Source: Bacteroidota bacterium (lineage in GTDB: Bacteria; Bacteroidota; Bacteroidia; Bacteroidales; CG2-30-32-10). From it: a DNA stretch of 44,585 nucleotides. Below are positions 1-30,284 of this stretch, piece after piece; the first letter of the stretch is position 1; each line of letters starts with the position of its first letter. Where the stretch lies: positions 1 to 44,585 of the forward strand of contig JAAXXA010000001.1 of NCBI GenBank assembly GCA_013334735.1, given 5' to 3'. The notes under the pieces were generated by a model, which made no database searches, was not told where the DNA came from, and was given only the letters and a program-made list of their open reading frames with translations. The position numbers and the translations under genes are program-made.

Positions 1-834
1 ATCTTGAAGAGTGTTGACTGTAGGATATGCCCATGCAGAAATAGTAAATGCGCTTGCCGCGTAATCAAAGGCAGTCCCTAAATCAATGTAACTAGGAACT
101 GTACGTGTAAACAGACCCCCTTGGTCTATTTTCCCATAAGTAGAGTTATAGGTAATTGTATGATCTGTTCCAGTATGACTATTGCCAGTAGCGTCATTAC
201 TGTTTCCTTCAAATTTCCAATAAGCAACTATGTTTGCAGCCAAATTTGCAGTAGTAACTGAAATAGTATTTGAATTACTACTTAAATTGCATGAGTTATT
301 AGCCCTTAAGCGATAGTAATAAGCCGTATTGCCGGAAAGACCGGTTACGATACAGGTGGTAACATTGCCTGCATTATTATTATTAAAGCCAGTTACTAAA
401 CTGCCAAAACCGCTACTTGTAGATACATCAAGATAATAAGATGTTGCTCCGTCAGATGCCGACCAGTTTGCTGTAAACTGGTTTTGGGTTGCACTTGTAC
501 CGGAAGTTGCCACAGGCGCTACTAATGATGTTTTTACGCTTATCCAGGATGAACCATTATAATATTGCAAATCATTGCAATCGGTATTGTAAATTATAAG
601 ACCCGTGGCGGGGGATGCAGGACGGTTTGCTGTTGTCAAGCGAGGTATAAGCAAACCCTGATTAGTACTACTTATATCGAGTGCTGCCGAGTTATCAGCT
701 TCGGCACCGGTAGTATTGATTGACACGCCCTGAGAAAAACAGAGAAAAGATAAAAAAAGGCATAAGGTAATAAAAAAGGCATAAGGCATCCGCCTATGGC
801 GGAGGCATAAGGCAAAAGGAGATTTTGTTTTCAT
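1..834 (-). CDS. Secreted modular surface protein, N-module family, C-terminus cut by the window edge (signal peptide + N-module + Fn3-like + start of LamG-like domain)
   Basis: Not in the ORF track because it runs off the window. Hand translation of the minus strand from the ATG (plus cat 832-834) gives MKTKSPFALCLRHRRMPYAFFITLCLFLSFLCFSQGVSINTTGAEADNSAALDISSTNQGLLIPRLTTANRPASPATGLIIYNTDCNDLQYYNGSSWI..QFTANWSASDGATSYYLDVS..AANIVAYWKFEGNSNDATGN. The frame is exactly 278 codons down to position 1. The leader is almost identical to that of 10719..13007. Confidence 0.85.
   Translation of the reverse strand, partial: MKTKSPFALCLRHRRMPYAFFITLCLFLSFLCFSQGVSINTTGAEADNSAALDISSTNQGLLIPRLTTANRPASPATGLIIYNTDCNDLQYYNGSSWISVKTSLVAPVATSGTSATQNQFTANWSASDGATSYYLDVSTSSGFGSLVTGFNNNNAGNVTTCIVTGLSGNTAYYYRLRANNSCNLSSNSNTISVTTANLAANIVAYWKFEGNSNDATGNSHTGTDHTITYNSTYGKIDQGGLFTRTVPSYIDLGTAFDYAASAFTISAWAYPTVNTLQD
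778..813. repeat. 15-nt palindrome TCCGCCTATGGCGGA flanked by direct repeats GGCATAAGGC, inside signal-peptide codons
   Basis: GGCATAAGGC (778-787), A, TCCGCCTATGGCGGA (789-803), GGCATAAGGC (804-813). On the minus strand it encodes ..ALCLRHRRMPYA... Confidence 0.7.
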
Positions 835-2826: not shown

Positions 2827-3825
2827 TCATTTCAAGCAATCTAAAAGTGTTTTTTGCCTGAAGTCAAATCTGTCTGATTGGTCCTTTTTTTCAATTATAT
2901 ATCTGAATTTTAGTCCTTTATTACCAATGATAAATCGTTTCAAATATCCATGCTTATAATTGTATATTGTCCATTTTGAACCATGTCGTTTGTAAACCCA
3001 GCTAATACCGGACACTCTTTCATAATCTTCCTTATCGAAAATTATTTTGATAATACCATGAACAGAGTTTATTGTAAGTTCAACTGTATCAGTATTTATG
3101 AAAGAATAAATATTTAAAGCATTGTTTTTATATAAAACAGATTTCCTGAAATCAAACTGAAAATCTTTACATTCAATACCTCTGAATCCTTTATTTCCCG
3201 GTTTTTGTCCATGCAATTTTAATATATATGCATGCATTGATAGTTGTTTATTGTTGTCTAAAGTTACCACACTATATTTACTATTGCCATCCTTTACTAC
3301 TCTCCAAACACATTTGGAAATTTTTAAATAATCTGCTTTATCGAAAATAACAGAAAATGGATCGCTATTTCTACGGTAAATTTCCATTTTCATGGTATCC
3401 TTATCAATTATAGTATAAACATTTCCGGTTTCAGAATATTGGTTTCGCCTCAAATCCCATAAAGTTTTTCCTTTTACTTTTCCGCAAATACGAAAATCAT
3501 TATTGCCAATATATTGGCCGATTGTAGGCGATTTTTTACCTACGCTTGTGCATGGAGGACGCGTGCCTTTTGCTCCTCCCCAATGGTATTCTGAAACTTT
3601 TTCGTAATCGTCTTTTTCCAGAAGTATGGTATGTCCGGTTTTATTGCTTAGTTTATTAATAACTAATAACTTTACATAATGTTGATTTACCTTGTAAACA
3701 TTAGTGTATTTATATTTTTCGCTTTTGGATTTATCGGTATATCTATCTGGAATTATTGTTGTATAACTCATGTTTTTAAGATTTTTTAAGTTTTTTGTAC
3801 ATGTAAAGTCATTAATAGCAGTCAT
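2827..3825 (-). CDS. Hypothetical protein made of three tandem degenerate HNH_3/AP2-associated-like repeats (catalytic His/Asn positions not conserved)
   Basis: 332-aa ORF with an ATG start. It has three ~100-aa internal repeats, each with a hairpin motif (ILLEKDDYEKVSEYHW / VIFDKADYLKISKCVW / IIFDKEDYERVSGISW). Each is followed by a ..DxR+..L motif (KTLWDLRRNQY / FQFDFRKSVLY / DRFDFRQKTLL) where HNH_3 proteins carry vDH.ngn.LDNRr.NLR. The region is much more AT-rich than its neighbours. The start ATG overlaps the upstream stop (ATGA at 3822-3825). Confidence 0.7.
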   Translation of the reverse strand: MTAINDFTCTKNLKNLKNMSYTTIIPDRYTDKSKSEKYKYTNVYKVNQHYVKLLVINKLSNKTGHTILLEKDDYEKVSEYHWGGAKGTRPPCTSVGKKSPTIGQYIGNNDFRICGKVKGKTLWDLRRNQYSETGNVYTIIDKDTMKMEIYRRNSDPFSVIFDKADYLKISKCVWRVVKDGNSKYSVVTLDNNKQLSMHAYILKLHGQKPGNKGFRGIECKDFQFDFRKSVLYKNNALNIYSFINTDTVELTINSVHGIIKIIFDKEDYERVSGISWVYKRHGSKWTIYNYKHGYLKRFIIGNKGLKFRYIIEKKDQSDRFDFRQKTLLDCLK

Positions 3826-4208: not shown

Positions 4209-6026
4209 TTAATTAATATTTAATGATCTCCCTGTTTCTAAATAATTGACTCCGTCAAATACAAATTTAAAAATGTTAGTTTCATTTGGAGTAGTTGTTA
4301 ACGAGGGGGTTGTGATGCCAGACCACTTAATATTTGTAGGCCATGAAACTGCCTTTCCACCCGAGCCATTCTGTTTAATAATAAAAGTATAATTACCACC
4401 ATTCTTGCCATTTGTAAATATGAAAGAACGATTTGTTGCTAATGTAATTTCCTGCACATTGCTTTTATTCCAGTCAACTATGGCCGGGGTAGGAGTGGTA
4501 AAAGTTACCTCAATTCCATAACTTATACCAACTGAATTAACTGCATACGCCCTTACGTAATAGAGAGTACCCGCTGTTAAACCCGTTATTGAAGCTGTAA
4601 ATGCGCCGGTTGTACCGGCTGAAGTTGCTTTGTTATTCCCGGTTGTCGGAGCAGTAGAAGTATTCCAGCAAACGCCTCGCTCTGTTATTGTTGCTCCTCC
4701 ATCAGCGCTAACATTTCCATTCCCTATGGCAGTTGTTGCAGTAATACTTGTAACCGCTAGAGTTGTAATACTTGCAAGGTTGAGAGTAGTAAAAGTTACC
4801 TCATTTCCATAGCTTATACCAGCGGCATTAATAGCATACGCTCTAACGTAATATAAAGTGCCGACAGATAAACCTGTCATTGAAGCGGTAAATGCACCGG
4901 TGGTACCGGCTGAAGTTGCTTTGCTGTTGGCTGTTGTGGGAGTTGCAGAAGTATTCCAGCAAACACCACGCTCAGTTATTGATAATCCTCCATTTGCAGT
5001 TACATTTCCATTACCCGTAGCGGTTGTTGCTGCAATATTACTAACAGCCTGAGTAGTAACGCTTGGAATATTAAAAGTAGTAAAAGTTACCTCATTTCCA
5101 TAGCTTATACCAGCTGAATTAATTGCATAAGCTCTGACGTAATAAAGTGTATTGACAGATAAAGCAGTTATTGCAGAGGTAAATGCACCGGTAGTTCCGG
5201 AAGAAATAGCTTTGTTGTTTGCTGTTGTTGGAACTGTAGAAGTATTCCAGCATACACCACGTTCAGTTATTGTTGCTCCTCCATCTGCTGTAACATTTCC
5301 ATTACCTGTGGCAGTTGTTCCGGCAATATTTGTAACTGCTTGGGTTGTAAGGGTAGGATAAGTTGCCGGTGCCGGCTCAAGAACGAGAGTATATAAGAGT
5401 GGCCAATTCGATGAGCCAACCATGCCAAGACTAGCGCTACCGGCTGGAGTAATCGGACCTTTATCAATATTTTGTTGTGAACAAGTAGTCGCGGTTCTTG
5501 CTGTTTGACCAGATGGTTGAGTATATACAGCATTAGAAAAACTAGTCCCAACAAGCCACGCATTATTTGTAGTGGTTGTTACAGCGCAAGTTTGCGCCAC
5601 ACAAGCATTGTATTGAGGTGGCGTCTGCTGTTTTACCCCATTATATGAAGTAACAGTTGTGGTTTGGCTATCTATTGTTCTGTTAAGAGAAATTACAATA
5701 TCGTGAGTTCCTGTAGCCGGTCCAACAAGGTAATATAAAAAATCCTGTCGCTGCCGCGCATTAGTTAAAAGCCTTGTCATTGCAACTCCATTGTAAGTAA
5801 TACCCGTAACATCATCTGAGGCAGGATATCCAGTTTCGGTTGATACAATTAAAAAAGTATTTGTTCCTGAAACTGTATAAGAAAATGTTGAAGTCCAAAC
5901 CGGACCGGATGCATTATCAAAAGCTACCTGCGAAAAGAGGGAAATAGGAAGTAGAAATAATGACCAAGCAATTAGCGTATTAAATATTGTAAAATTTAAT
6001 TTTGTTTTTTCAAAGAATGTATTCAT
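4209..6026 (-). CDS. Secreted CTD-family protein: signal peptide + 'YNGV' domain + 3 Fn3-like modules (subtype 1) + shared C-terminal domain
   Basis: The track start at 6086 is a TTG (plus caa 6084-6086) that overlaps a TAAGTTTG -7 box. The ATG at 6026 gives MNTFFEKTKLNFTIFNTLIAWSLFLLPISLFSQ. There are three repeats of ..TTATGNGNVTADGGATITERGVCWNTS..TLYYVRAYAINSAGISYGNEVTFTT. The C-terminus is VDWNKSNVQEITLATNRSFIFTNGKNGGNYTFIIKQ..VSWPTNIKW..FKFVFDGVNYLE. Confidence 0.85.
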   Translation of the reverse strand: MNTFFEKTKLNFTIFNTLIAWSLFLLPISLFSQVAFDNASGPVWTSTFSYTVSGTNTFLIVSTETGYPASDDVTGITYNGVAMTRLLTNARQRQDFLYYLVGPATGTHDIVISLNRTIDSQTTTVTSYNGVKQQTPPQYNACVAQTCAVTTTTNNAWLVGTSFSNAVYTQPSGQTARTATTCSQQNIDKGPITPAGSASLGMVGSSNWPLLYTLVLEPAPATYPTLTTQAVTNIAGTTATGNGNVTADGGATITERGVCWNTSTVPTTANNKAISSGTTGAFTSAITALSVNTLYYVRAYAINSAGISYGNEVTFTTFNIPSVTTQAVSNIAATTATGNGNVTANGGLSITERGVCWNTSATPTTANSKATSAGTTGAFTASMTGLSVGTLYYVRAYAINAAGISYGNEVTFTTLNLASITTLAVTSITATTAIGNGNVSADGGATITERGVCWNTSTAPTTGNNKATSAGTTGAFTASITGLTAGTLYYVRAYAVNSVGISYGIEVTFTTPTPAIVDWNKSNVQEITLATNRSFIFTNGKNGGNYTFIIKQNGSGGKAVSWPTNIKWSGITTPSLTTTPNETNIFKFVFDGVNYLETGRSLNIN

Positions 6027-6083
6027 GTTTTTTTCTTTTTTACAGATAATGGTTTTTATTAAAATAATTATTGTGTAAAAATG

Positions 6084-6091
6084 CAAACTTA
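6084..6091 (-). promoter_or_regulatory. Candidate Bacteroidota -7 promoter box (TAAGTTTG)
   Basis: Plus caaactta reads TAAGTTTG on the minus strand. It lies about 58 nt upstream of the ATG at 6026 and overlaps the TTG that the ORF track used as a start. Confidence 0.4.
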
Positions 6092-6115
6092 ATATACAAA
6101 TAAATAATATTCTAT

Positions 6116-6165
6116 CTGGATTTTTTATGGATAGCCAAAAATTTTTATATGGATTTTTTATGGAC
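6116..6165 (-). promoter_or_regulatory. Phased ATGGAT hexamer array (4 sites in an 11-bp register) upstream of 4209..6026
   Basis: Hexamers start at 6116 (CTGGAT), 6127, 6149 (ATGGAT) and 6160 (ATGGAC). The spacings are 11, 22 and 11 nt. The array lies 25 nt upstream (minus sense) of the TAAGTTTG box. Confidence 0.6.
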
Positions 6166-6318
6166 TAAAAAAATAAAGCTCAGATAGTCAATTATTTAAA
6201 AAATACAAGAAAATGCAAGGGGATTTGAGTGGTTTAACACAAATTAAGCATTTTATTTTGTTGGTGATCCTTCACGGTGTAAACAAACAAGGGCACGATT
6301 GGTAATAGCAAAAATTTA

Positions 6319-8652: not shown

Positions 8653-10683
8653 TCAATTATCATTAACACAACGAACACTTAACCCACCGGTTTTGAAATT
8701 CATCCACCGATTTACTTCAGCTGACCCGGAACCTAACATGCGAAACCAAATGTAAGTAGCATCTGAGTATTCTGAAGCTGTTGCCCAGTAACCATTGGTG
8801 AGATAACTGTTTGTAGTACCATTTGGGTTACGGTTGCCACCGGGTAAAGCGCTGAAGCCACTAGTGTTTGTACCGGCACTTGGGCTTGACCATGTGCCTG
8901 AAGTTTTCATTTTATTTCCCACAGTAACTCCATGAAAGCCTTCGAAATTACAATCAATACCTGACTCAATGGCATTTTCCATAATACAAAATTCGGCATC
9001 TTTAGGTATGTGCCAGCCTGTTGGACAAATGCCCTGAATATTCCCCGTAGGTATTGGACTCCATGTAGCTGTATTGGTAGCTCCATTTATGTATTGAACC
9101 ATCTCTGCCCATTGGTATAAACCGCCGTAGGTATTGCAGTTGTTTACATCATTGCCATAGCAGTATTTTTCTACACTGCCGTTATTTGTTTGTTCTGAAG
9201 CTGAATTTATATAAGTTCCACTGGTGCTATAATTAATATTTTGTGCCATCCAGCACTGTGAACCTATCAGCACGGTATTATATGTTTTGCTGTCTCTGGA
9301 ATCGGTTAGGGTTGTGCCGCATACGAAACAAGCTAAGGTAGAATATGTTATTGTATTGGAATTGCCGCTCGTTCCACAAGTATTCTCTGCTCTTACCCGA
9401 TAGTAATAGGTTGTTCCGCATATTATTCCTGCTACATTATAGGTGGTTACAGTGCTTACATCCTTATTGTTGTACCCTGTTACGAAATTTGCAAAACTAC
9501 TGTTGGTGGATACATCAAGGTGGTAATGTGTTGCTCCTGAGGAAACATTCCAGTTAGTTGTTATTTGTGTTGTAGTAGCTTCGCTACCTGCTGAAGCTAC
9601 AAGAGCGGCAGGTGCGTTATTTACTGTAACTGTTGTACAATTTGCGACACCAGTTCCGCATTCGTTATAAGCCGAAACACATACGTTCCCTGTAGTATTT
9701 CCTAAAGTTACAATAATGTTATTTGTTCCTGTTCCTGATGTTATTACGGTTCCCAATGGATATGTCCAAATGTAAGATGTTGCTCCTGTAATGGGAGTAA
9801 TGGAGTAATTTATGCCTGTTGCATTTGCGCATACACTTGTTGAACCTGTTATTGAACCGGTGATGCCGGGTATTGCTCCATTGTTTGTGTTTAAAGGAAC
9901 CCAGTTAACTCCATCAAAATAATTGAAATTATTACAATCAATATTAAAAACCATTAATCCTGCAACTGGGGATGCAATTGCACTTCGTTGTGCAGTTGTC
10001 ATTCGTGGCATTAATGCTCCCTGAGTTGTTGAGCTTACCTCTAACGCTGCCGAAGAAGCTGGCGATGTTGTTCCGATTCCTACATTAGTTCCATTGTTAT
10101 ATAATAAACTGTTTGCAACCCAGCTTGAGCCATCGTTTCGTAAGGTTTGACCAGAAGTACCTGCAATTAAGGGACCTGTAGCTCCTGTAGCTCCCGTGGT
10201 ACCGTTAGTACCGGTTTCTCCATTAGCGCCTGTTGTTCCTGTAGCTCCTTGAGGACCAATAGCCTGTGCCCAAGCCGAACCATTGTAATAATAGTAGCCG
10301 GGAGTGTTGTCGGTTTGATAAATTAAGCATCCAGTAGCAGGAGCATGACCGGCGATACCATCGGATCCTATTAACTGATTTCGCTGTGCCATAGTCATTC
10401 TTGGAATAAGGGCGCCTTGCGTTGTACTGCTTATATCAAGGGCTGCGGAGTTATCAGCTTCATTGCCGGTGGTGTTGATAGATACACCTTGAGAAAAACA
10501 ATGAAAAGTTGAAAAAAAACATAAGGCAATAAAAAAGGCATAAGGCATCCGCCTATGGCGGAGGCATAAGGCAAAACGAGATTTCGTTTTACTCACGTTA
10601 TTACTTATTTTTATAAAGTGTTTCCCGAATCGAGTTCGGGACAAGCTGTGATCCGCCATTGGCGGACGCTTTGCTAAGTTCAT
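8653..10683 (-). CDS. Secreted N-module family protein with TIGR02145-type C-terminal domain; start uncertain because of a 90-nt insertion after the ATG
   Basis: The track ORF extends to an ATG at 10737, which would overlap the upstream gene's stop. The ATG at 10683 (MNLAKR..) is the counterpart of the MKTK.. start of the paralogs, with 30 inserted codons after it. Alternative starts downstream of the insert are GTG at 10596 and ATG at 10548 (MPYAFFIALCFF..CFSQ/GVSINTTG). Domains: N-module x2, 10 GXY triplets, Ig-like, Fn3-like, and DSRDSKTYNTVLIGSQCWMAQNINY..YGGLYQWAE..CPTGWHIPKDAEF..LSVRCVNDN. Confidence 0.8.
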   Translation of the reverse strand: MNLAKRPPMADHSLSRTRFGKHFIKISNNVSKTKSRFALCLRHRRMPYAFFIALCFFSTFHCFSQGVSINTTGNEADNSAALDISSTTQGALIPRMTMAQRNQLIGSDGIAGHAPATGCLIYQTDNTPGYYYYNGSAWAQAIGPQGATGTTGANGETGTNGTTGATGATGPLIAGTSGQTLRNDGSSWVANSLLYNNGTNVGIGTTSPASSAALEVSSTTQGALMPRMTTAQRSAIASPVAGLMVFNIDCNNFNYFDGVNWVPLNTNNGAIPGITGSITGSTSVCANATGINYSITPITGATSYIWTYPLGTVITSGTGTNNIIVTLGNTTGNVCVSAYNECGTGVANCTTVTVNNAPAALVASAGSEATTTQITTNWNVSSGATHYHLDVSTNSSFANFVTGYNNKDVSTVTTYNVAGIICGTTYYYRVRAENTCGTSGNSNTITYSTLACFVCGTTLTDSRDSKTYNTVLIGSQCWMAQNINYSTSGTYINSASEQTNNGSVEKYCYGNDVNNCNTYGGLYQWAEMVQYINGATNTATWSPIPTGNIQGICPTGWHIPKDAEFCIMENAIESGIDCNFEGFHGVTVGNKMKTSGTWSSPSAGTNTSGFSALPGGNRNPNGTTNSYLTNGYWATASEYSDATYIWFRMLGSGSAEVNRWMNFKTGGLSVRCVNDN
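10168..10257 (-). repeat. Collagen-like GXY tract, 10 triplets
   Basis: Encodes GPQ GAT GTT GAN GET GTN GTT GAT GAT GPL within 8653..10683. Confidence 0.8.
10537..10572. repeat. 15-nt palindrome TCCGCCTATGGCGGA flanked by direct repeats GGCATAAGGC, inside signal-peptide codons
   Basis: GGCATAAGGC (10537-10546), A, TCCGCCTATGGCGGA (10548-10562), GGCATAAGGC (10563-10572). Confidence 0.7.
10591..10680 (-). repeat. 90-nt two-hairpin element inserted in frame immediately after the start codon (copy 1)
   Basis: I aligned the minus strand against paralog 10719..13007: ..atatattATG[AACTTAGCAAAGCGTCCGCCAATGGCGGATCACAGCTTGTCCCGAACTCGATTCGGGAAACACTTTATAAAAATAAGTAATAACGTGAGT]AAAACGAAATCT.. versus ..atatattATGAAAACAAAATCT... 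The insert is exactly 90 nt. It contains the palindromes TCCGCCA-T-TGGCGGA (10652-10666) and TCCCGAA-tcgag-TTCGGGA (10623-10641). Confidence 0.75.
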
Positions 10684-10718
10684 AATATATAATTTAAAAA
10701 GATTTTTATAAAAATAAA

Positions 10719-13007
10719 TTAATTGTCCTTTAAACATCTGACACTTCCACCAAGGGCTTTTGGTAATGTGTTTGGGAATACATTGGAGTATGCGTAATGC
10801 AAGCCGAAATCACCTGCAGAAGTTGCATTGTTCTCCGTGGCTGTCCAACATTCGAAGCAGACGCCAACATCGGTGAACGAGCCACCGCTATTGAGATAAC
10901 CACCAGGAAGTGCGTTAAAACCGCTGCTATTGTTACTTGCCTGGTTACAACCTACATTACCGGACGTTCCACTAGAATTCCAACCCGACGTTGAAGCCAT
11001 TGATTTTGCCGAGTAAGTGCCTCCAAGATAAGTATATAGAGTTGCCCATTCAGCAGCACTTGGTATATGCCAACCTGTTGGGCAAATACCTTGAACAGGT
11101 GGAGCTGGTTGCTGCGATGTGGTGTTAGAACAACCATTTTTGTATGCCATCGCCTCAGACCATTGATATATACCTCCATAAGAAGTGCAATTGGCTTCAT
11201 TATCTCCATAACAATATTTTTCTATACTAGTATTATTATTATCAGTTCCGCTGGTTTGAGTAGCACTACCGGCAACTTTAATACCTACATTCATGTTTTG
11301 AGCCATCCAACATTGAGTACCTATGAGAACACTAGCATATTGTTTGCTATCTCGGGAATCTGTTATCGTACTGCCGCAGTTAAAACAAACTGAAGTAGCA
11401 TAAGTTATTGCTCCTGAATTACCGCTTGTGCTGCAAGTATTCTCCGCTCTTACCCTATAGTAATAGGTTGTTCCGCAAGTGAGACCTGTTATATTACATG
11501 TAATTACGGTACTTACATCCTTATTGCTAAAGCCTGTTACAAAATTTGCAAAACTGCCACTTGTAGATACATCAAGATGGTAATGTGTTGCACCCGTAGA
11601 GACATTCCAGTTAGCAGTTATTTGTGTTTCTGTAGCTCCACTACCAACAGCAGCCACAGGTGGAAATAATGATAAACTGTTCATGACACTTATCCATGTT
11701 GTGCCATTATAATATTGTAGTTCATTACAATCGGTATTGTAAATTATTAGACCTGTGGCAGGAGTGGTAGGTCTGTTAGCTATAGCAACACGGGGTATAA
11801 GTATTCCTTGCGTAGTTGAACTCAAATCAAGTAGTGCCGAAGAAGCCGGGCTTACTGTACCGATACCAACGTTAGTTCCATTGTTATATAATAAACTGTT
11901 TGCAGCCCAGCCCGAGCCATCGTTTCGTAAAGTTTGTCCTGAATTACCTGTAACCAAAGGACCTGTTGCTCCTGTAGCTCCCGTTGCTCCAACAACTGCA
12001 GTTAACCCGAATGAAGTAATTACATAAGAAACATGAGTAGAGCCTTCATATACAAAGCTTACGGTTTTATTGCCATTAGTGTTTTTAACATATATTTTAA
12101 CAATTATTCTATCGGATGAGTTCATTGCTACCGGACTTGTTTGAGTATAATTGGTAATTATTTCTGCTACAGAAGTATTTGTAATATTGGGGCTTGTAAC
12201 ATTAAATATTTCAGTTTCAGTATAGGGAGAATCGGAAATTCTTTTAAAAACTCTGAAAACTAAATTTCCGGTGTTAGCGTTAACAAAACCATAAGTATGG
12301 AATTGCCACAAACCAATTGGGAAGCTTGATAAACCGGGAACAGCGGGAAGTGTTGCGTATGCATCCACTAAATATTCAGTATTTGAATTAGTGCAAGGTA
12401 TTGCTTCAATTACTTCTGATCCCGCGTTTGGAATTCGTTTGAAACCTTCATATCCGGAAATATCTGAATCCGCGTGATGAAACCAATAAAGTTGACCAGA
12501 TGTTTGCCCATCAGAGCCTGTAGTGCCAGTTGTGCCTGTAATTCCTGTAACACCGGTGTTACCTGTTGTTCCATTACTTCCGTTGCTTCCCGCAGCGCCT
12601 GTTGGACCTGTTGCGCCTGTATTACCTGCCGCTCCATTGGTTCCATTAGTACCAGAAGCGCCTGTGGGACCTATAGCCTGCATCCAAGCAGAGCCATTGT
12701 AGTAATAATAGCCGGGAGTGTTGTCGGTTTGATAAATTAAGCAACCTGTGGCAGGGGCATGTCCCGAGATACCATCAGAGCCAATTAACTGATTTCGCTG
12801 CGCCATAGTCATTCTTGGAATAAGAGCGCCTTGCGTTGTGCTGCTTATATCAAGGGCTGCGGAGTTATCGGCTTCATTTCCTGTGGTATTGATGCTTACG
12901 CCCTGAGCGAAACAATTAAAAGTTAAAAAAAGACATAAGGCAATAAAAAAGGCATAAGGCATCCGCCTATGGCGGAGGCATAAGGCAAAAGGAGATTTTG
13001 TTTTCAT
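10719..13007 (-). CDS. Secreted N-module family protein: N-module, 19-triplet collagen-like tract, inserted ~170-aa beta-rich domain, second N-module, Fn3-like, TIGR02145-type domain
   Basis: Starts MKTKSPFALCLRHRRMPYAFFIALCLFLTFNCFAQ/GVSINTTGNEADNSAALDISSTTQGALIPRMT. Collagen-like tract: GPTGASGTNGTNGAAGNTGATGPTGAAGSNGSNGTTGNTGVTGITGTTGTTGSDGQT. C-terminal motifs: DSRDSKQYASVLIGTQCWMAQNMNV..YGGIYQWSE..CPTGWHIPSAAEW..GSVRCLKDN. Confidence 0.9.
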   Translation of the reverse strand: MKTKSPFALCLRHRRMPYAFFIALCLFLTFNCFAQGVSINTTGNEADNSAALDISSTTQGALIPRMTMAQRNQLIGSDGISGHAPATGCLIYQTDNTPGYYYYNGSAWMQAIGPTGASGTNGTNGAAGNTGATGPTGAAGSNGSNGTTGNTGVTGITGTTGTTGSDGQTSGQLYWFHHADSDISGYEGFKRIPNAGSEVIEAIPCTNSNTEYLVDAYATLPAVPGLSSFPIGLWQFHTYGFVNANTGNLVFRVFKRISDSPYTETEIFNVTSPNITNTSVAEIITNYTQTSPVAMNSSDRIIVKIYVKNTNGNKTVSFVYEGSTHVSYVITSFGLTAVVGATGATGATGPLVTGNSGQTLRNDGSGWAANSLLYNNGTNVGIGTVSPASSALLDLSSTTQGILIPRVAIANRPTTPATGLIIYNTDCNELQYYNGTTWISVMNSLSLFPPVAAVGSGATETQITANWNVSTGATHYHLDVSTSGSFANFVTGFSNKDVSTVITCNITGLTCGTTYYYRVRAENTCSTSGNSGAITYATSVCFNCGSTITDSRDSKQYASVLIGTQCWMAQNMNVGIKVAGSATQTSGTDNNNTSIEKYCYGDNEANCTSYGGIYQWSEAMAYKNGCSNTTSQQPAPPVQGICPTGWHIPSAAEWATLYTYLGGTYSAKSMASTSGWNSSGTSGNVGCNQASNNSSGFNALPGGYLNSGGSFTDVGVCFECWTATENNATSAGDFGLHYAYSNVFPNTLPKALGGSVRCLKDN
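12501..12671 (-). repeat. Collagen-like GXY tract, 19 triplets
   Basis: Encodes GPT GAS GTN GTN GAA GNT GAT GPT GAA GSN GSN GTT GNT GVT GIT GTT GTT GSD GQT within 10719..13007. Confidence 0.8.
12951..12986. repeat. 15-nt palindrome TCCGCCTATGGCGGA flanked by direct repeats GGCATAAGGC, inside signal-peptide codons
   Basis: GGCATAAGGC (12951-12960), A, TCCGCCTATGGCGGA (12962-12976), GGCATAAGGC (12977-12986). Degenerate versions are at 15140-15154 (tcagcctatggcgga) and 18944-18958 (tacgcctatggcgga). Confidence 0.7.
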
Positions 13008-13121: not shown

Positions 13122-15275
13122 TCAGTCTTTTAAGCAACGGAGTGATGCACCAAAAGCTTTTTCGTAGCTGACCATGTGGCTCGGACCACCATCGAAAGTA
13201 ATTAACCAGCTATTACTAGCGCTATTCTGCGTACTGCCCCAATAGTAGCCCCAGTAACCACGATATTCCAGCACACCATTAATTCTGAGTGTACCTGCTC
13301 CATGGATTTTTAAAACAGAATTATAAATGTCGGTATAATTAGGCCAACCAGCCACAACATTCGTCCATTCCGTGAAACTAGGGATACGCCAACCTGAGCC
13401 AAGCTCTGAGGTGCAGGGGTCGTTAATTGGAAGCCAATCACTTGCTTCACTAATTGAAATAGTCCATGTAGGAGTTGAGCCAACTTTATATCCCTGCTTT
13501 CGGTTAAACTGCCAATACCAACCCGCAGAGGCATCAGTTAAATCTGTAGCAGCAGAAGTTGCCTGTTGATCGGCGCCAAGGTTTTGGGTTATCCAGCATT
13601 TACTTGCTCCTGAAAGACTTGTTGTTACTGTGCCATAGTTTACTGTCTTTGTTACAGGGGCTACTCCAATGCCGAGTGTATGGGTAATAGGTAAAGCGTT
13701 GCCACAAGAAAATGCAGGAGTAGGATTGTCTTTAATGCAACGTATGGAATTACCAATAGCCTTGATTTCATCGTGATATACACCACAATAAGCGCTGTAA
13801 GATCGCATTAGCCAGCCGTAGGTAGCATCGTACTGCGAGCTACTCCAATAGAAACCGTAGTTACCTCGAAGACTTAACGAACCATCGCCGCTTGTCAGGT
13901 AGCCTGCAGCATGAAGTTTTAACACTGAATTGTAAGTGTCGGTGTATGTACTCCAATTTTGTGGAGAGCCATCAGCAGCAGTCCATTCAGTTTGGGTAGG
14001 GATACGCCAACCGTTGCCAAGCTCAATTTTGCATGGATCATTGACAGGCAACCAGTCGCTGGTTTCGTTTATAGAAGTAATCCAGGTTGTACTTGGTGTA
14101 CGAGTACTTCCATCGTGTTTATATCCCTGCTTTCTGTTAAACTGCCAATACCAACCTGCGGAGGCTTCAGAGGCATCAGTTGCTGAAGATGCCTGATTAT
14201 TAGAACCTAAGTTTTGAGTAATCCAGCATTTACTAGCGCCCGAAAGACTTGTTGTTACAGTTCCATAGTTCACTGTTTTTGTTTCAGGCGATACTGTACC
14301 AATAGTGTGGGAAACAGCATAAATGTTATCACAAGTAAAAGCAGTAGTAGTAATAACCACATCGTCAGTAGAAGCTGTACAAGTTGAATTTGAAATCGTC
14401 CAACGCAGAGTTGCTACACCGGGTACTTCTAATCCTGTTACTCCGGAAGTTGGAGAATTTGGAGTAGTTATGGTGGCTGTGCCGGATACTACTGACCACA
14501 AGCCTGTACCAACTGTGGGTGTATTTCCCGCTAATGTGGCAATGCTAACACCACCGGCAGGATTTATATCAGTACCCGCAGCAGCTGATGTTGGAGCCGC
14601 ATTTATCGTAATTGTTAAAGTTTGAGGAGTACCATTGCCACAAGTATTGCTTGGCGTAACTGTTAGTGTGCCGGAAGTAGCGGTAATGAAATTTGCAGTA
14701 ATTGAGTTTGAAGGGTAGCCTAATGGATAATTAAAACCTGTACCAGAATATGTCCAAGTATAAGTAACTCCAGAAACATTTGTAACTGAATAAGATACAT
14801 TACTCTGACTTTGGCAAACAGAGTTTAAACCTGTAATTATACTTGGTTGTGTAGGAGGTGTACAAGCGGCAGGGCACGATACTGTATTCCAAGCTCCATT
14901 TACATAAGCTTCAAAACAGTTTGTCGTAATATTAAATATTATAAGACCAGCTGCTGGTGATGTTATCAGATCACGTTGTGTTGTAGTCATACGTGGTATC
15001 AGTACGCCCTGTGTTGTACTGCTTATATCAAGGGCTGCGGAGTTATCAGCTTCATTACCGGTTGTGTTGATGCTTATGCCCTGAGAAAAACAGTGAAAAG
15101 TTAAAAAAAGGTATAAGGCAATAAAAAAGGCATAAGGCATCAGCCTATGGCGGAGGCATAAGGCATAAGGTGTTTTTGTTTTACTCACGTTATTATTTAT
15201 TTTAATAAGGTGTTTCCCGAATCGAGTTCGGGAAAAGCTGTGATCCGCCATTGGCGGACGTTTTGCTAAGTTCAT
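13122..15275 (-). CDS. Secreted N-module family protein with two tandem TIGR02145-related lectin-like domains; carries the same 90-nt post-ATG insertion
   Basis: MNLAKRPPMADHSFSRTRFGKHLIKINNNVS precedes KTKTPYALCLRHRLMPYAFFIALYLFLTFHCFSQ/GISINTTG. Two copies of ..VNYGTVTTSLSGASKCWITQNLG..AGWYWQFNRKQGYK..WLP(V/I)NDPC..GWRIP..EWT..S(I/L)RC(I/L)KD are present. Between them and the N-module lie Ig-like modules (CQSQSNVSYSVTNVSGVTYTWTYSG; GTGLWSVVSGTATI..LRWTISNSTC). Confidence 0.85.
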   Translation of the reverse strand: MNLAKRPPMADHSFSRTRFGKHLIKINNNVSKTKTPYALCLRHRLMPYAFFIALYLFLTFHCFSQGISINTTGNEADNSAALDISSTTQGVLIPRMTTTQRDLITSPAAGLIIFNITTNCFEAYVNGAWNTVSCPAACTPPTQPSIITGLNSVCQSQSNVSYSVTNVSGVTYTWTYSGTGFNYPLGYPSNSITANFITATSGTLTVTPSNTCGNGTPQTLTITINAAPTSAAAGTDINPAGGVSIATLAGNTPTVGTGLWSVVSGTATITTPNSPTSGVTGLEVPGVATLRWTISNSTCTASTDDVVITTTAFTCDNIYAVSHTIGTVSPETKTVNYGTVTTSLSGASKCWITQNLGSNNQASSATDASEASAGWYWQFNRKQGYKHDGSTRTPSTTWITSINETSDWLPVNDPCKIELGNGWRIPTQTEWTAADGSPQNWSTYTDTYNSVLKLHAAGYLTSGDGSLSLRGNYGFYWSSSQYDATYGWLMRSYSAYCGVYHDEIKAIGNSIRCIKDNPTPAFSCGNALPITHTLGIGVAPVTKTVNYGTVTTSLSGASKCWITQNLGADQQATSAATDLTDASAGWYWQFNRKQGYKVGSTPTWTISISEASDWLPINDPCTSELGSGWRIPSFTEWTNVVAGWPNYTDIYNSVLKIHGAGTLRINGVLEYRGYWGYYWGSTQNSASNSWLITFDGGPSHMVSYEKAFGASLRCLKD
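15183..15272 (-). repeat. 90-nt two-hairpin element inserted in frame immediately after the start codon (copy 2)
   Basis: It has the same element and the same position relative to ATG/AAAAC as copy 1, with about 6 substitutions in 90 nt. Both palindromes are retained, and the second stem is extended to TTTCCCGAA/TTCGGGAAA. Confidence 0.75.
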
Positions 15276-17677: not shown

Positions 17678-18982
17678 TTAAAATGGATATTGCAAACCAG
17701 CACCACTATTGTATAAATCAGAAACTTCATTTGTTGTTAAAGCTCTACTCCAAAGCCCCATTTCATCTAACGATCCTTTTAAGTAACGAATAAAAGTATT
17801 TGTAGACCATAAAGCGCCAATGTGGATATTGTAGTTATTTGTATAAATAGAAGTAATGTTATAACCAGTATTTGCAGGTGTAGTACAAACATTGTTTTTA
17901 TAAATTTTAAAAGTGTTTAATCCTACATCGTATGTAAGGACTAAATGTGTCCAAATTCCCTCATCTGCCGCGGTTATATAATTAGATTGAGTTTGAAAAG
18001 AAGAATAATGATTTGTATTGTATGTACCGTCATCAGAGAATATGCCGTCAATAGCACCATTATTCCAGTACTCCAATCTCCATAAAAAACGATCAGGATC
18101 CTGTTCTGCCCAACGATCAATAAAACCTGAAATTTGTGAAGTTCCACCGGAAGCAAAATTTACCCAAAAAGACACAGAGAATCCACTCGAAATAGTGTTT
18201 AAACTGGTAGAAGAAACCCCCTTAAGATATTGATTAGTCCCATTTAAAACTATATGGTTATTTATAAGAGGAGATGTTCCTGAAAACTGCGCAGAATTAT
18301 AGTTACCCATATCGTTTGCATTACCGGTAGCATCAACAGCCGACACAGATCCCGATTCATCAAGTTTCCAAAAAGCAACCAGATTATTTGTTAAACTTAC
18401 CGTAGTTGTTGTGATAGTATTTGAATTCGCCCCTATTCCACAACTACTAACTGCTTTTACACGATAATAATAGGTTGCACCTGCTGTTAGTCCTGTAATA
18501 TTATAAGTAAGAGCTGTTCCAACATTCAAACTATTGTAAGTTCCCATAAAAGAAGCAAAATTGCTCACAGTTGATACATCAAAATAATAAGATGATGCTC
18601 CCGCTGAGGCGCTCCAGTTGGCTGTAAATGATGAGGCTGTTCTATTTGAAGCAGCGTTAGCTGTAGGAACCAAAGGAGGATTACATGGGCAAAACCCCAT
18701 ATTCCATGCTCCATTTACGAATGCTTCAAAGCACTTTGTAGTGGTATTGTATATAAGCAAGCCTTCGGCAGGAGAACTGATTAAATCTCTGTTTGTAGTA
18801 GTCATGCGGGGTATTAGCATTCCCTGATTGGTGGCGCTTACATCCAGCATTGCCGAATTATCGGCAGCAGCGCCGGTGGTGTTGATGCTTACACCCTGAG
18901 AAAAACAGTGAAAAGTTAAAAAAAGGTATAAGGCAATAAGGCATACGCCTATGGCGGAGGCATAAGGTGTTTTTGTTTTCAT
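17678..18982 (-). CDS. Secreted N-module family protein: N-module + Fn3-like + C-terminal LamG-like (Laminin_G_3 type) domain
   Basis: Starts MKTKTPYASAIGVCLIALYLFLTFHCFSQ/GVSINTTGAAADNSAMLDVSATNQGMLIPRMTTTNR. Fn3-like module: FTANWSASAGASSYYFDV..TYYYRVKAVS. LamG-like motifs: LVAFWKLDESGSVSAVDATGNAN..FSVSFWV..LDEMGLWSRALTTNEVSDLYNSGAGLQYPF. Confidence 0.9.
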   Translation of the reverse strand: MKTKTPYASAIGVCLIALYLFLTFHCFSQGVSINTTGAAADNSAMLDVSATNQGMLIPRMTTTNRDLISSPAEGLLIYNTTTKCFEAFVNGAWNMGFCPCNPPLVPTANAASNRTASSFTANWSASAGASSYYFDVSTVSNFASFMGTYNSLNVGTALTYNITGLTAGATYYYRVKAVSSCGIGANSNTITTTTVSLTNNLVAFWKLDESGSVSAVDATGNANDMGNYNSAQFSGTSPLINNHIVLNGTNQYLKGVSSTSLNTISSGFSVSFWVNFASGGTSQISGFIDRWAEQDPDRFLWRLEYWNNGAIDGIFSDDGTYNTNHYSSFQTQSNYITAADEGIWTHLVLTYDVGLNTFKIYKNNVCTTPANTGYNITSIYTNNYNIHIGALWSTNTFIRYLKGSLDEMGLWSRALTTNEVSDLYNSGAGLQYPF

Positions 18983-20823: not shown

Positions 20824-20938
20824 AATTTTTTTTTGATTGTAATTTGTCCGATCTCTTGTCAATTAAATAATTGTTAGTAACATATTATAAATAGCGTGCG
20901 AAGTTACCTCGCAAATCAAGATATTAATAATAATCTAT

Positions 20939-20999
20939 ATGGATTTCTTATGGATAGGTTGTCTAATTTATATGGATTTCTTATGGATTTTTTATGGAC
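20939..20999 (-). promoter_or_regulatory. Phased ATGGAT hexamer array (5 sites in an 11-bp register) upstream of 19021..20823
   Basis: ATGGAT starts at 20939, 20950, 20972 and 20983, and ATGGAC at 20994. The spacings are 11, 22, 11 and 11 nt. Confidence 0.6.
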
Positions 21000-21113
21000 T
21001 TAATATGGGCTTAAATATTAAAGCGCACGAAATCAGGTAAATACAATTTATTAAAGAAAAAGGGAAATTTTATCAGGTCTAGGGTAATTTGTTTAATGCC
21101 AGCAGGAAAAGTT

Positions 21114-21176
21114 GCAGTAGGCAGTTTACAGTCAGCAGTCGGCAATAGGCAGTCGGCATTCGGCAATCAGTAACTT
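21114..21176. repeat. Degenerate heptanucleotide tandem array (8-9 units, consensus GCAGTCG/GCAATCA)
   Basis: Read in register from 21114: gcagtag gcagttt acagtca gcagtcg gcaatag gcagtcg gcattcg gcaatca gtaactt. It has the same RGCARTC core as 2711..2759. It is intergenic, between the stop at 21226 and the ATGGAT array at 20939..20999. Confidence 0.6.
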
Positions 21177-21225
21177 AATATAGTTGGTTTAAAAATGCGG
21201 GAATTTAACCTTTTTGTAAACATAA

Positions 21226-22833: not shown

Positions 22834-22877
22834 AGGGTTACATTTTTATTTTTTTAACAATAATTAATAATAAAGTA

Positions 22878-22885
22878 CAAAATTA
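22878..22885 (-). promoter_or_regulatory. Candidate Bacteroidota -7 promoter box (TAATTTTG)
   Basis: Plus caaaatta reads TAATTTTG on the minus strand. It lies about 45 nt upstream of the ATG at 22833. Confidence 0.4.
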
Positions 22886-22917
22886 TAATGTATATAAAAA
22901 AAATAAAAATAATCTAT

Positions 22918-22967
22918 ATGGATTTTTTATGGATAACCCTATTATTTTATATGGATTTTTTATGGAA
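22918..22967 (-). promoter_or_regulatory. Phased ATGGAT hexamer array (4 sites in an 11-bp register) upstream of 21226..22833
   Basis: ATGGAT starts at 22918, 22929 and 22951, and ATGGAA at 22962. The spacings are 11, 22 and 11 nt. The array lies 33 nt upstream (minus sense) of the TAATTTTG box. Confidence 0.6.
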
Positions 22968-22995
22968 AGTAAAAAAATAAAATGATGATAATAAG

Positions 22996-25266: not shown

Positions 25267-25333
25267 TATTGTTTTTACTTTTATTGATCTATTAATATAA
25301 TTTATATAATGCTAAAAATTAGTTTGTAAATAT

Positions 25334-25416
25334 ATGGATTTTATATGGATAATAAATTAATTATATCTTGATTTATCATGGACAACCCCATTATTTTATA
25401 TGGATTTTTTATGGAT
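25334..25416 (-). promoter_or_regulatory. Phased ATGGAT hexamer array (5 sites in an 11-bp register) upstream of 22996..25266
   Basis: ATGGAT starts at 25334 and 25345, ATGGAC at 25378, and ATGGAT at 25400 and 25411. The spacings are 11, 33, 22 and 11 nt, all multiples of 11. Confidence 0.6.
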
Positions 25417-25443
25417 AGTAAAAAATAATATGCTCATAAAAAA

Positions 25444-28520: not shown

Positions 28521-30284
28521 TTACTTAATATTTATGTTAGTTCCTATTTCTAAATAATTAGAGCCATCAAAAATAAATCTTGAAATGTCGACAGCATCAG
28601 GTAAAGTTGAAAATGTTGGCATTATTCCACCTGTCCACTTAACATTAGGCGGCCATGAAATAGTCCATCCGCCTATACTATTCTGTTTAATGATAAGGTT
28701 ATATATGCCACCACTCTTACCGTTGGTAAATGTGAAAGAACGATTTGCCGTCAAAGTAATTTCCTGCACGTTGCTGTTGTTCCAATTTACTGTAGCAAAT
28801 GTAACAGTAGTAAAAGTACCATCGGTGGAATACCCGGTACCCACGCTGTTTGTAGCATAACCTCTGTAATATATGAGTGTACCACTTGGAAATCCTGTTC
28901 GTGCATGGGTAAATACTCCTGTTGTTGTGCCGCCCTCAGAAACACAATTTGTGCTTGGGTTTGCCGAAGTTCCCCAGCATGTGCCTCTTGCTGTGATTGT
29001 AGCGCCACCATCCGAAGTTATATTGGCGCCAATAGTAGCGCTGTTGGTTGTAATAGATGTGGCAGTAGGAGTTGTAACAGTCGGGATATTAAGAGTAGTA
29101 AAAGTACCATCGGCAGAATATCCTGTGCCTACGCTGTTTGTTGCGTAACCTCTGTAATAAATGAGCGTACCTGCCGGTAATCCTGTTCTTGCCTGAGTGA
29201 ATATTCCCATTGAGGTTCCACCTTCGGCAACGGAGTTGGTGGTTGGACTAGCCGAAGTTCCCCAGCAGGTTCCCCTTGCAGTAATTGAAGCGCCTCCATT
29301 AGAAGTAATATTAGCGCCTAAAGTGGCGGTTGTAGATGTGATTGTAGTTGAAGTAGGAGAAGTTATAGTAGGGACGCTTGTTGCTTCTACTGTAGTAAAT
29401 GTTCCGCTTGAGGTAAAAGTATGAATAGTATATGAACCGTCTGTTGTGATGGTTCCACCGGTACACGTTCCAAAATCAGTAGTGAGATATCTGATAATTA
29501 CAACACCCGACCCACCTTTCCTAGAAGTTGCACCTGTACTTCCACCACCACCTCCTCCTGAATTTGCCAATCCTTCAGTTGGGTTTGGACCGCCTCCTGA
29601 ACCGCCACCACCTGCCCCTGCTGAACCACCTGTATCGCCCGCGCCGCCACCACCTCCACCACCATACGTTACAGAGGTGCCGGTAATAGAATTAGCAGTG
29701 CCTCCACCACCCGCGCCGCCAACACTAAAGCTAACTCCATTTGATCCAACAGCATTATCACCGCCACCTCCGCCGCCACCGCCATTTGAAGCCCCCCCCG
29801 CTTTTCCTGAACCGCTCGTACCACCTTTTGATGAACTGGCTGTTGCTCCTTTACCACTTATTGCTGTTATTGTGCTAAAAATGCTATTACTTCCATCAAT
29901 ACCAGGATAACCGCTAACTGTTTGTCCAGCTCCACCATCTCCAACAGTAACAGAATATGCTTGAATTGACAAAGCAAAAGATGCATTATACCTAACTTGA
30001 CCGCCGCCACCACCACTAGGATAGTCAACACTGGAAGTGGAACCACCACCACCGCCGCCACCGCCTACTACCAATACTTGTACATTTTGCGAAACTATAG
30101 TTGCCGGGGTAAAAATCGCCAGTATATTAATTATTAAAAAGTCAAAAGGACCCACAGACCTCCAAGCTTTCCCTACTTCGACTCTGTTTAGGGTAAATCG
30201 TGAGAGAATTGTACCACGATGTTGAATTTTTGCTTTGCAAGAAATCTCCTCGCTAAGTTCTGATAAATGATTTATTTTTTTCAT
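28521..30284 (-). CDS. CTD-family protein: extended MKKINxLSE leader with internal hydrophobic segment + glycine-rich domain + 2 Fn3-like (subtype 2) + shared C-terminal domain
   Basis: Starts MKKINHLSELSEEISCKAKIQHRGTILSRFTLNRVEVGKAWRSVGPFDFLIINILAIFTPATIVSQ/NVQVLVVGGGGGGGG..YSVTVGDGGAG..GGSGVVIIRY. Two ..ITARGTCWGTSA.P.TN..AEGGT..LIYYRGYATNSVGTGYS.DGTFTT modules follow. The protein ends VNWNNSNVQEITLTANRSFTFTNGKSGGIYNLIIKQ... Confidence 0.85.
   Translation of the reverse strand: MKKINHLSELSEEISCKAKIQHRGTILSRFTLNRVEVGKAWRSVGPFDFLIINILAIFTPATIVSQNVQVLVVGGGGGGGGSTSSVDYPSGGGGGQVRYNASFALSIQAYSVTVGDGGAGQTVSGYPGIDGSNSIFSTITAISGKGATASSSKGGTSGSGKAGGASNGGGGGGGGDNAVGSNGVSFSVGGAGGGGTANSITGTSVTYGGGGGGGAGDTGGSAGAGGGGSGGGPNPTEGLANSGGGGGGSTGATSRKGGSGVVIIRYLTTDFGTCTGGTITTDGSYTIHTFTSSGTFTTVEATSVPTITSPTSTTITSTTATLGANITSNGGASITARGTCWGTSASPTTNSVAEGGTSMGIFTQARTGLPAGTLIYYRGYATNSVGTGYSADGTFTTLNIPTVTTPTATSITTNSATIGANITSDGGATITARGTCWGTSANPSTNCVSEGGTTTGVFTHARTGFPSGTLIYYRGYATNSVGTGYSTDGTFTTVTFATVNWNNSNVQEITLTANRSFTFTNGKSGGIYNLIIKQNSIGGWTISWPPNVKWTGGIMPTFSTLPDAVDISRFIFDGSNYLEIGTNINIK

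Follow-up and report, generated by a model that had tools for sequence, protein, structure and literature searches.

Why do two paralogous genes for large secreted proteins carry, directly after their start codons, an in-frame block of 90 nt that holds two palindromes and that other members of the family lack? The genes lie on the minus strand of contig JAAXXA010000001.1 from a Bacteroidota metagenome-assembled genome (MAG), at 8653..10683 and 13122..15275. The contig was analysed over its entire 44,585 bp, referred to as the window, and genes are named by their lower coordinate (g8653, g13122). The reading favoured here, at a probability of roughly one half, is that the block is a two-hairpin repeat of non-coding type, resembling the repetitive extragenic palindromic (REP) sequences and the Rickettsia palindromic elements (RPEs), that has been copied into the ATG/AAA site of at least three paralogues. 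Independent movement of the element is unproven.

The boundaries of the element were obtained by aligning the 5' ends of the two genes with those of g10719 (ATG 13005-13007), g6319, g17678 and a truncated gene starting at 834. Exactly 90 extra nt separate the ATG, itself part of ATTATG, from AAAAC in both g8653 and g13122, and this realignment returned the coordinates reported in a preliminary description of the locus. The small divergence between copies reported there stands, with the number of differing positions corrected from about 6 to 5 (element nt 12, 39, 64, 69 and 77; 94.4% identity, blastn E = 4e-36). Both copies have the same layout, in which hairpin 1 and hairpin 2 are followed by 32 nt of AT-rich tail with GTG AGT, in frame, as its last codons. 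Five of the six frames contain stops in both copies, the gene's own being the open one, and six-frame translation reproduces the 30 residues described before, NLAKRPPMADHS(L/F)SRTRFGKH(F/L)IKI(S/N)NNVS. The 5 differences between the window copies, and the presence of a third on a separate contig, rule out an assembly artefact.

This third copy was recovered with the first 33 residues as an HMMER query. Among 1.84 billion representative proteins, the query matched only the product of g13122 and one further protein, P0121 (NTW31511.1, hypothetical protein HGB12_02605), encoded on an 11-kb contig of a Bacteroidetes MAG. HGB12_02605 is another paralogue and carries the 30 residues directly after Met1, as known from its protein sequence. 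It matches the window copies at 24-25 of 30 residues in the element and at 23-33 of ~63 in the N-terminal domain, and at only 6-7 of 34 in the adjacent signal peptide, which is unrelated. Because the best relatives of the window proteins, which are NCBI entries as well, are other HGB12 proteins, the window is very probably another contig of the same MAG. Most paralogues in this genome lack the 30-residue extension. Since the element is kept in HGB12_02605 beside an unrelated leader, it is, on these comparisons, a sharply bounded module, and neither a conserved protein domain nor the by-product of one gene duplication. Compared with the sequences that flank it, the element is the more recent or else by a wide margin the more constrained.

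The empty sites in the window lead in the same direction. The two bearers do not form a sister pair: past the first ~200 nt, identity between their bodies is only 35-50%, with g8653 grouping with g869 and g10719, and g13122 with g19021. Directly after the element they are 89% identical, a lower value than that of each against its own empty paralogue (Table 1), and upstream of the ATG they share only ATTATG. The junction between g869, its spacer and the gene at 834 is homologous to that between g10719, its spacer and g8653, forming an empty and a filled version of one arrangement. A search for a near-identical empty-site twin of HGB12_02605 gave only more distant paralogues. Simple gene duplication, which the preliminary description had named as an outcome that would speak against mobility, is weakened by the third copy before an unrelated signal peptide and by the near-identical empty-site paralogue of each window copy.

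What is preserved in the element appears to be its hairpins. Both palindromes are identical in the two window copies, as first described (on the plus strand, TCCGCCATTGGCGGA at 10652-10666 and 15244-15258, and TCCCGAATCGAGTTCGGGA at 10623-10641 and 15215-15233); in shuffled sequence, 0.35 and 0.03 occurrences, respectively, are expected by chance. Their stems differ from each other, being TCCGCC/GGCGGA in hairpin 1 and TCCCGAA/TTCGGGA in hairpin 2. Folding, proposed earlier as a check, shows that the element RNA is more stable than shuffled controls in both copies (z = -3.0 for copy 1 and -4.9 for copy 2). The fold consists of two separate short hairpins, and the ends of the element do not pair with each other. 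The 5' ends of genes with empty sites are unstructured (minimum free energy of 0). The first 17 nt after the ATG are unpaired, the first stem begins at +18, and the hairpins begin 39-52 nt 3' of the upstream gene's stop codon.

None of the five nucleotide differences between the window copies falls in a stem position. Among the three copies, six residues vary (13, 22, 23, 26, 28 and 30), and none of these is among the 13 residues encoded by the hairpins (hypergeometric P ~0.02). This distribution points to a constraint that acts on the hairpins at the nucleic-acid level, rather than on the peptide. Directly after the element, g8653 differs from g10719 and from the gene at 834 by two substitutions of its own, A>G at 10585 and C>G at 10577. 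With the two neighbouring G-C pairs that they add, the segment 10573-10590 becomes a perfect hairpin of 7 bp (AAAACGA/TCGTTTT), and the leader has Arg in place of Pro.

If instead the 30 residues were a functional, protein-level extension of the signal peptide, slowing or routing the export of large surface proteins, the hairpins would be incidental. The extension is in frame and open in three genes, and it is hydrophilic and strongly basic (net charge +5/+6). It precedes a signal peptide with normal n-, h- and c-regions, so placed that the leader including the element is 65 residues long in all three genes, with the hydrophobic core at approximately residues 45-58. Extended signal peptide regions (ESPRs), N-terminal signal-peptide extensions of autotransporters and two-partner secretion proteins, offer a precedent: there too an extra segment stands before the normal signal peptide of large surface proteins, in a leader of at least 50 residues. 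ESPRs, however, have a conserved protein motif across many species. Here, the peptide is limited to paralogues of one MAG among the 1.84e9 proteins searched, so that the conserved N-terminal extension once considered as a counter-explanation was not found. In addition, 3 of the 5 nucleotide changes between window copies are non-synonymous, and the invariant residues are those encoded by the stems, so that conservation follows the DNA hairpins. Pfam reports no N-terminal family in the full 676-aa and 717-aa products and no match to the extension, including to the ESPR family PF13018. A role for the peptide itself is improbable on this evidence.

A stronger challenge comes from the array in which the genes lie. 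Nine genes within 1-20.9 kb share an N-terminal domain, PTL_trimer (PF26696, precomputed Pfam), and those in 1-20900 are mosaics whose nearest relative differs for leader, N-terminal domain and body; the leader of g13122, for example, is 98% identical to that of g17678, and its body resembles that of g19021. This mosaicism indicates frequent recombination or gene conversion inside the array, as judged from sequence identity. Because gene conversion is rife and all copies occupy one site in one family, the main rival to the favoured reading is that the block is a family-specific 5' leader cassette: a regulatory RNA/DNA module passed between paralogues by duplication and recombination. Translation would then begin at the GTG in the tail, giving a protein that starts M(S/N)K(T/Y).. 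with a normal 36-residue signal peptide, and the hairpins would sit in an intercistronic leader, with effects on the stability of the upstream message or on how strongly the cistron is translated. The tail GTG lies in frame two codons before the junction, and the three copies agree in the Val that it encodes but not in the residues beside it. Intergenic spacers are mostly 17-40 nt, so the surface-protein genes are probably co-transcribed in operons, and the distance of the hairpins from the upstream stop codon is the usual REP position between co-directional genes (PMC3733652). The same study makes the case that REPs at predicted N-termini are for the most part not coding sequence at all (PMC3733652).

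Several observations make such a cassette less attractive, and it is regarded as possible but rather doubtful. The conserved ATTATG, with its upstream context unchanged, is still in frame, and all 90 nt are open, for which the joint chance is ~0.07 if they are untranslated. GTG starts are uncommon, and a GTG within a translated frame is a poor initiator. Homologous recombination is poorly suited to moving the block, given 5' flanks with so little in common and the unrelated 3' flank of the third copy. Rfam 15 has no matches in the whole window at gathering thresholds, and a permissive scan of 10450-10800 gave only chance-level matches.

The choice of start codon separates these readings. The alternative starts proposed in the preliminary description, GTG (10594-10596) and ATG (10546-10548), are both present in frame in g8653. 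The original ATG keeps the context of the empty-site paralogues, and the spacer upstream of g8653 is homologous to that of the gene at 834. Initiation at the original ATG with read-through of the element is considered somewhat more probable than any other course. Homologues in other Bacteroidota MAGs (Table 1) have long inserts between MKTK and the hydrophobic core that are in frame, unrelated to one another and free of internal Met. Hairpins comparable to those of the element were rejected for the two inserts with readable DNA (z = -0.5 and +1.3); the latter insert, in L021, is a tandem repeat of AAGTATCAAGTCG-like units. As far as these sequences indicate, insertions thus seem to be widely tolerated in this family's n-region, and no common element is involved.

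A further hairpin unit, absent from the preliminary description, lies 104 nt downstream of hairpin 1. This solo palindrome B, TCCGCCATAGGCGGA, is near-identical to hairpin 1, the two 15-mers differing in the loop only, and it lies within the signal-peptide coding part of five paralogues. It is missing from g6319 and is decaying in g13122 and g17678 without compensating changes. The indels tied to it are all multiples of three (30 nt relative to g6319 and 12 nt in g17678). Hairpin-1-type units are thus found both alone and within the 90-nt composite, and all 7 in the contig are at paralogue 5' ends.

The similarity of hairpin 1 and palindrome B raises the idea of a switch: the pair could be the inverted repeats of a short DNA segment that flips, or could form a long-range RNA helix masking the start region. 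Consistent with the latter, the minimum-energy fold of the 144-nt segment pairs the two in both bearers, at -55.4 kcal/mol against -46.0 for local hairpins in g8653 and -38.3 against -34.5 in g13122. However, no frame of the third copy's signal peptide yields a B-type sequence, and palindrome B occurs alone in three paralogues; its uncompensated decay in two genes also speaks against pairing. For inversion, 104 bp is very short and the 44.6-kb contig contains no recombinase gene; for an RNA helix, co-transcriptional folding favours the local hairpins. A switch of either kind is therefore very improbable.

The favoured reading, a REP- or RPE-like repeat, rests on comparison with described systems. 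The CGTC-tagged REP superfamily consists of hairpins with an unpaired tag, 8-9-bp stems starting with A-T, 4-5-nt loops and a CCA tail (Di Nocera et al. 2013, PMC3733652). These REPs are present in 20 to thousands of copies, mostly intergenic and just 3' of genes between co-directional genes; some lie within open reading frames (ORFs), with an excess at predicted N-termini; and they occur in several phyla, including Bacteroidetes, without a dedicated transposase (PMC3733652). The earlier statement that nothing equivalent is known in Bacteroidota was too strong, as REP-type palindromes, some of them intragenic or N-terminal, have been described from several phyla, Bacteroidetes among them (PMC3733652). 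Like these REPs, the element has short, GC-rich, grouped stem-loops, lies 3' of a gene between co-directional genes, and is inside an ORF N-terminus. The CG before hairpin 1 gives CGTC, and the CCTC that precedes palindrome B is a listed tag variant, with TC inside the stem in both cases. Hairpin 2 has a 5-nt loop and a stem word in common with hairpins of Melioribacteraceae that fit the CGTC scheme; the TGTC preceding it in copy 1 is lost in copy 2, which has TTTC.

RPEs are in-frame palindromic repeats in coding genes that add a short tolerated peptide and have no known transposase (PMC3733652; PMC10969869). When descriptions are compared, the element is likewise a small palindrome-bearing repeat without coding capacity of its own, inserted in frame in genes that stay open and adding a short hydrophilic peptide; the in-frame reading holds for the two window copies and for the third copy in NTW31511.1. 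The resemblance to RPEs drawn in the preliminary description therefore stands for in-frame palindromic insertion, and fails for dispersal in unrelated genes and for an overall palindrome. RPEs are ~100-150 bp long, form about ten families, and have dozens of insertions in unrelated genes and positions, in Rickettsia only; the element is 90 nt long, with three known copies at one site in one paralogous family of a Bacteroidota MAG. An RPE is a whole palindrome with pairing ends, whereas here the ends match at 4 of 25 positions and two separate hairpins form.

A third comparison is with the palindrome-associated transposable elements (PATEs) and REPtrons derived from the insertion sequences (IS) of the IS200/IS605 type. 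The element shares with these the lack of terminal inverted repeats and of a target-site duplication, subterminal hairpins, a single orientation, and a position 3' of TTATG in both window copies. This position is compatible with such insertion and not specific to it, because all paralogues share ATTATG, and the whole comparison is one of resemblance only. The left- and right-end hairpins of one IS resemble each other. In contrast, the element has two dissimilar hairpins, with 32 nt between hairpin 2 and its right end, and the contig has no Y1 transposase.

The hairpin words also appear in other lineages. A pattern scan requiring both stems in the element's order was run on GTDB representative genomes, JGI metagenomes and viral contigs. 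The two-stem pattern was found in ~12 independent lineages of the GTDB genomes and JGI metagenomes, including Melioribacteraceae, Ignavibacteria, Brocadiaceae, Nitrospirae, Planctomycetota, Roseivirgaceae, Prolixibacteraceae and a peat-metagenome family, with the Fibrobacterota-Chlorobiota-Bacteroidota (FCB) and Planctomycetota-Verrucomicrobiota-Chlamydiota (PVC) groups both represented. Every match lies within a cluster of differing short GC-rich hairpins, with flanks unrelated to the 90-mer, and the pair is intergenic in most of these loci. The loops of hairpin 2 are alike: CTCGA in the element corresponds to CTCGT in Roseivirgaceae and to CTTGT in both Brocadiaceae and Melioribacteraceae. 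In Melioribacteraceae, neighbouring hairpins of the form TGTC-AT-CCCGAA-CTTGT-TTCGGG-AT fit the published scheme (TGTC, AT, 8 bp and a 5-nt loop). In a Planctomycetota MAG (L002, 2585-5845, minus strand), both words stand at 5068-5105, in frame and mid-way in a 1086-aa ORF (..PPCPPEADSRPEGLRDSGQG..; ..PVSRLAGQAGQPPCPPEADSRPEGLRDSGQG..). This cross-phylum link is a resemblance for which homology is not claimed.

Two arrays seen in these collections have repeat structures of their own. In a Roseivirgaceae MAG (L007, 1-440), a 103-nt unit is repeated four times in tandem, each with a terminator-like hairpin and CCCCGAACTCGTTTCGGGG, which is one loop base off hairpin 2; the array ends beside a TCCGCCTTTGGCGGA hairpin. 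Six peat and wetland metagenome contigs of 53-56% GC (L010, L011, L014, L015, L018 and L020) share the repeated module GATCCGCCA(A/T)TGGCGGATCG(G/C)GG(T/C)TCCCCGAA...TTCGGGGTTCGCCCC, in which the element's two stems recur, ordered as they are here, although the high-GC organism is an unrelated one.

A bolder reading would make the block an active, hairpin-guided, site-specific mobile element that targets the ATG/AAA of secreted-protein genes and adds a cleavable basic extension, whether selfish or co-opted, as part of a widespread uncharacterised REP-like superfamily with a common mobilising enzyme. This is unlikely. If the superfamily existed, the same two words in Ignavibacteriota, Planctomycetota and other lineages would belong to one REP-like superfamily; and if the element were mobile in this way, it would be selfish DNA for which signal peptides are a safe harbour, or DNA co-opted for tuning individual paralogues in surface-protein operons.

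A number of results weigh against the more modest reading of a copied REP- or RPE-like repeat. Known copies number three, all at ATG^AAA of one gene family, and no other full or partial copy is present in any spacer or gene of the 44.6-kb contig. The pattern scan found no further 90-mer: the GTDB and JGI matches are unrelated clusters, and the scans did not return the source genome. Neither mark of a miniature inverted-repeat transposable element was found, as stated in the preliminary description: only 4 of 25 terminal bases are complementary, amounting to no terminal inverted repeat, and the junctions TTATG|AACTT and GTGAGT|AAAAC have only an ambiguous AA in common as a target-site duplication. 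No transposase was matched among the contig proteins scanned, and none of the 22 large ORFs resembles one. Relative to CGTC-tagged REPs, the stems are short at 6-7 bp, apart from the 9 bp of hairpin 2 in copy 2, and the loop of hairpin 1 is a triloop; leading A-T pairs and the CCA tail are lacking, and the tag bases lie inside the stem. Because the mosaicism of the paralogues is pervasive, gene conversion ending at heterology could mimic empty and filled sites. As to translation from the original ATG, a stop-free frame is expected by chance in ~20% of cases at the element's composition (~0.07 jointly with an in-frame length), and the tail GTG is preceded by an A-rich stretch that is kept.

If the block is nevertheless a copied repeat, the process may involve: spread by copying that does not need flanking homology, through single-strand, hairpin-recognising transposition of the REP or IS200/IS605 type or through illegitimate recombination; continued initiation at the original ATG, whose upstream context is unchanged and which is followed by a first hairpin only from +18, as is generally compatible with initiation; and read-through by which the signal-peptide n-region gains 30 basic residues. 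The entire 65-residue leader would then be lost on cleavage at ..CF(S/A)Q|G. The mature protein would be unchanged, and for that reason the site would tolerate the insert. If the element has a function, this would be a secondary one exerted as nucleic acid, for instance through hairpins that stabilise the message upstream or lower the translation of the bearer gene. REPs downstream of stop codons are known to act on mRNA stability (PMC3733652).

If this account is correct, the cleaved signal peptide is a neutral landing pad at which palindromic repeats can enter coding sequence with the mature protein untouched, and the idea of selfish DNA in genes, developed for Rickettsia, would extend to Bacteroidota. 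Start-codon calls and signal-peptide predictions are uncertain for such genes, with a 65- or a 36-residue leader at issue, and individual paralogues of large surface-protein arrays are set apart by carrying the element. Intragenic palindromic repeats of a comparable kind have been described before, also from Bacteroidetes and at N-terminal positions, and the finding opens no long-standing question.

Other identities for the block were also considered. ARAGORN found no tRNA or tmRNA. A terminator role was rejected: no U-run follows either hairpin on the gene strand, and the one call resembling a terminator, at hairpin 1 of copy 2, is on the strand that is not transcribed. A promoter role was rejected as well, with no Bacteroidota-type TAnnTTTG box inside the element. 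Comparison of the element with plasmids and phages (blastn) and with a viral collection gave no match. The positions of the features are collected in Table 1.

Table 1. Positions of the element, its hairpins, empty sites, palindrome B and inserts in homologues (window coordinates unless a contig is named).
Feature	Position	Strand	Remarks
Element copy 1	10591..10680	-	In gene 8653..10683; from paralogue 5'-end alignment; 85/90 identical to copy 2
ATG of g8653	10681..10683	-	Start in database gene call (676-aa product, P0001)
Hairpin 1, copy 1	10652..10666	-	TCCGCCAATGGCGGA; 6-bp GC-rich stem, triloop; encodes (R)PPMAD
Hairpin 2, copy 1	10623..10641	-	TCCCGAACTCGATTCGGGA; 7-bp stem, 5-nt loop; encodes SRTRFG(K)
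AT-rich tail, copy 1	10591..10622	-	In-frame GTG 10594-10596; GTG AGT AAA ACG = MSKT.. if used as start
Element copy 2	15183..15272	-	ATG 15273-15275; followed by AAAAC of gene 13122..15275
Hairpin 1, copy 2	15244..15258	-	Identical to copy 1
Hairpin 2, copy 2	15213..15235	-	9-bp stem via G>T at element nt 39
Empty site ATG|AAA, g10719	13002..13007	-	First 100 nt past junction 93% identical to g8653
Empty site ATG|AAA, g17678	18977..18982	-	First 100 nt past junction 98% identical to g13122
Empty site ATG|AAA, truncated paralogue	829..834	-	Homologous to g8653 in the spacer and gene end that precede it
Palindrome B, g8653	10548..10562	-	Flanked by direct repeat GCCTTATGCC; frame unlike that of hairpin 1, read as LRHRRM
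Palindrome B, g13122	15140..15154	-	One stem mismatch (GGCTGA)
Palindrome B, g10719	12962..12976	-	Gene without the 90-nt element
Palindrome B, truncated paralogue starting at 834	789..803	-	Gene without the 90-nt element
Palindrome B, g17678	18944..18958	-	Degenerate (GGCGTA); gene without the 90-nt element
n-region insert, homologue P0040	L009, 5062-5220		
n-region insert, homologue P0016	L021, 891-1020		
n-region inserts, homologues P0060, P0116, P0056, P0063			

The remainder of the contig is a dense series of minus-strand genes for large secreted surface proteins. Downstream of the PTL_trimer domain, Pfam identifies PKD-like, fibronectin-III, collagen-like and Fib_succ_major or Laminin_G_3 domains. 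The array is interrupted at 2827-3825 (minus strand) by a 332-aa ORF with internal repeats (YKHGYLKRFIIG) and no Pfam match at E<=0.01.

From 21226 to 44510, 12 consecutive genes have in common a C-terminal domain of ~100 residues (..VNWNNSNVQEITL..FTNGKSGG.YTL.IKQ..GGW.VSWP.N.KW..) and carry internal repeats of ~97 residues, in repeat families D1-D8. Several of them contain long Gly-rich tracts, which give rise to spurious antisense ORFs such as that at 29446-29910 (plus strand). Long intergenic regions are few (6027-6318, 20824-21225, 22834-22995 and 25267-25443), and each contains 2-3 copies of a motif like (A/G)TCCATAAAAAATCCATATA(A/G)A. Read on the gene strand, the motif lies upstream of operon-leading genes, and it is probably a binding site or promoter module, as yet putative, of the surface-protein operons.

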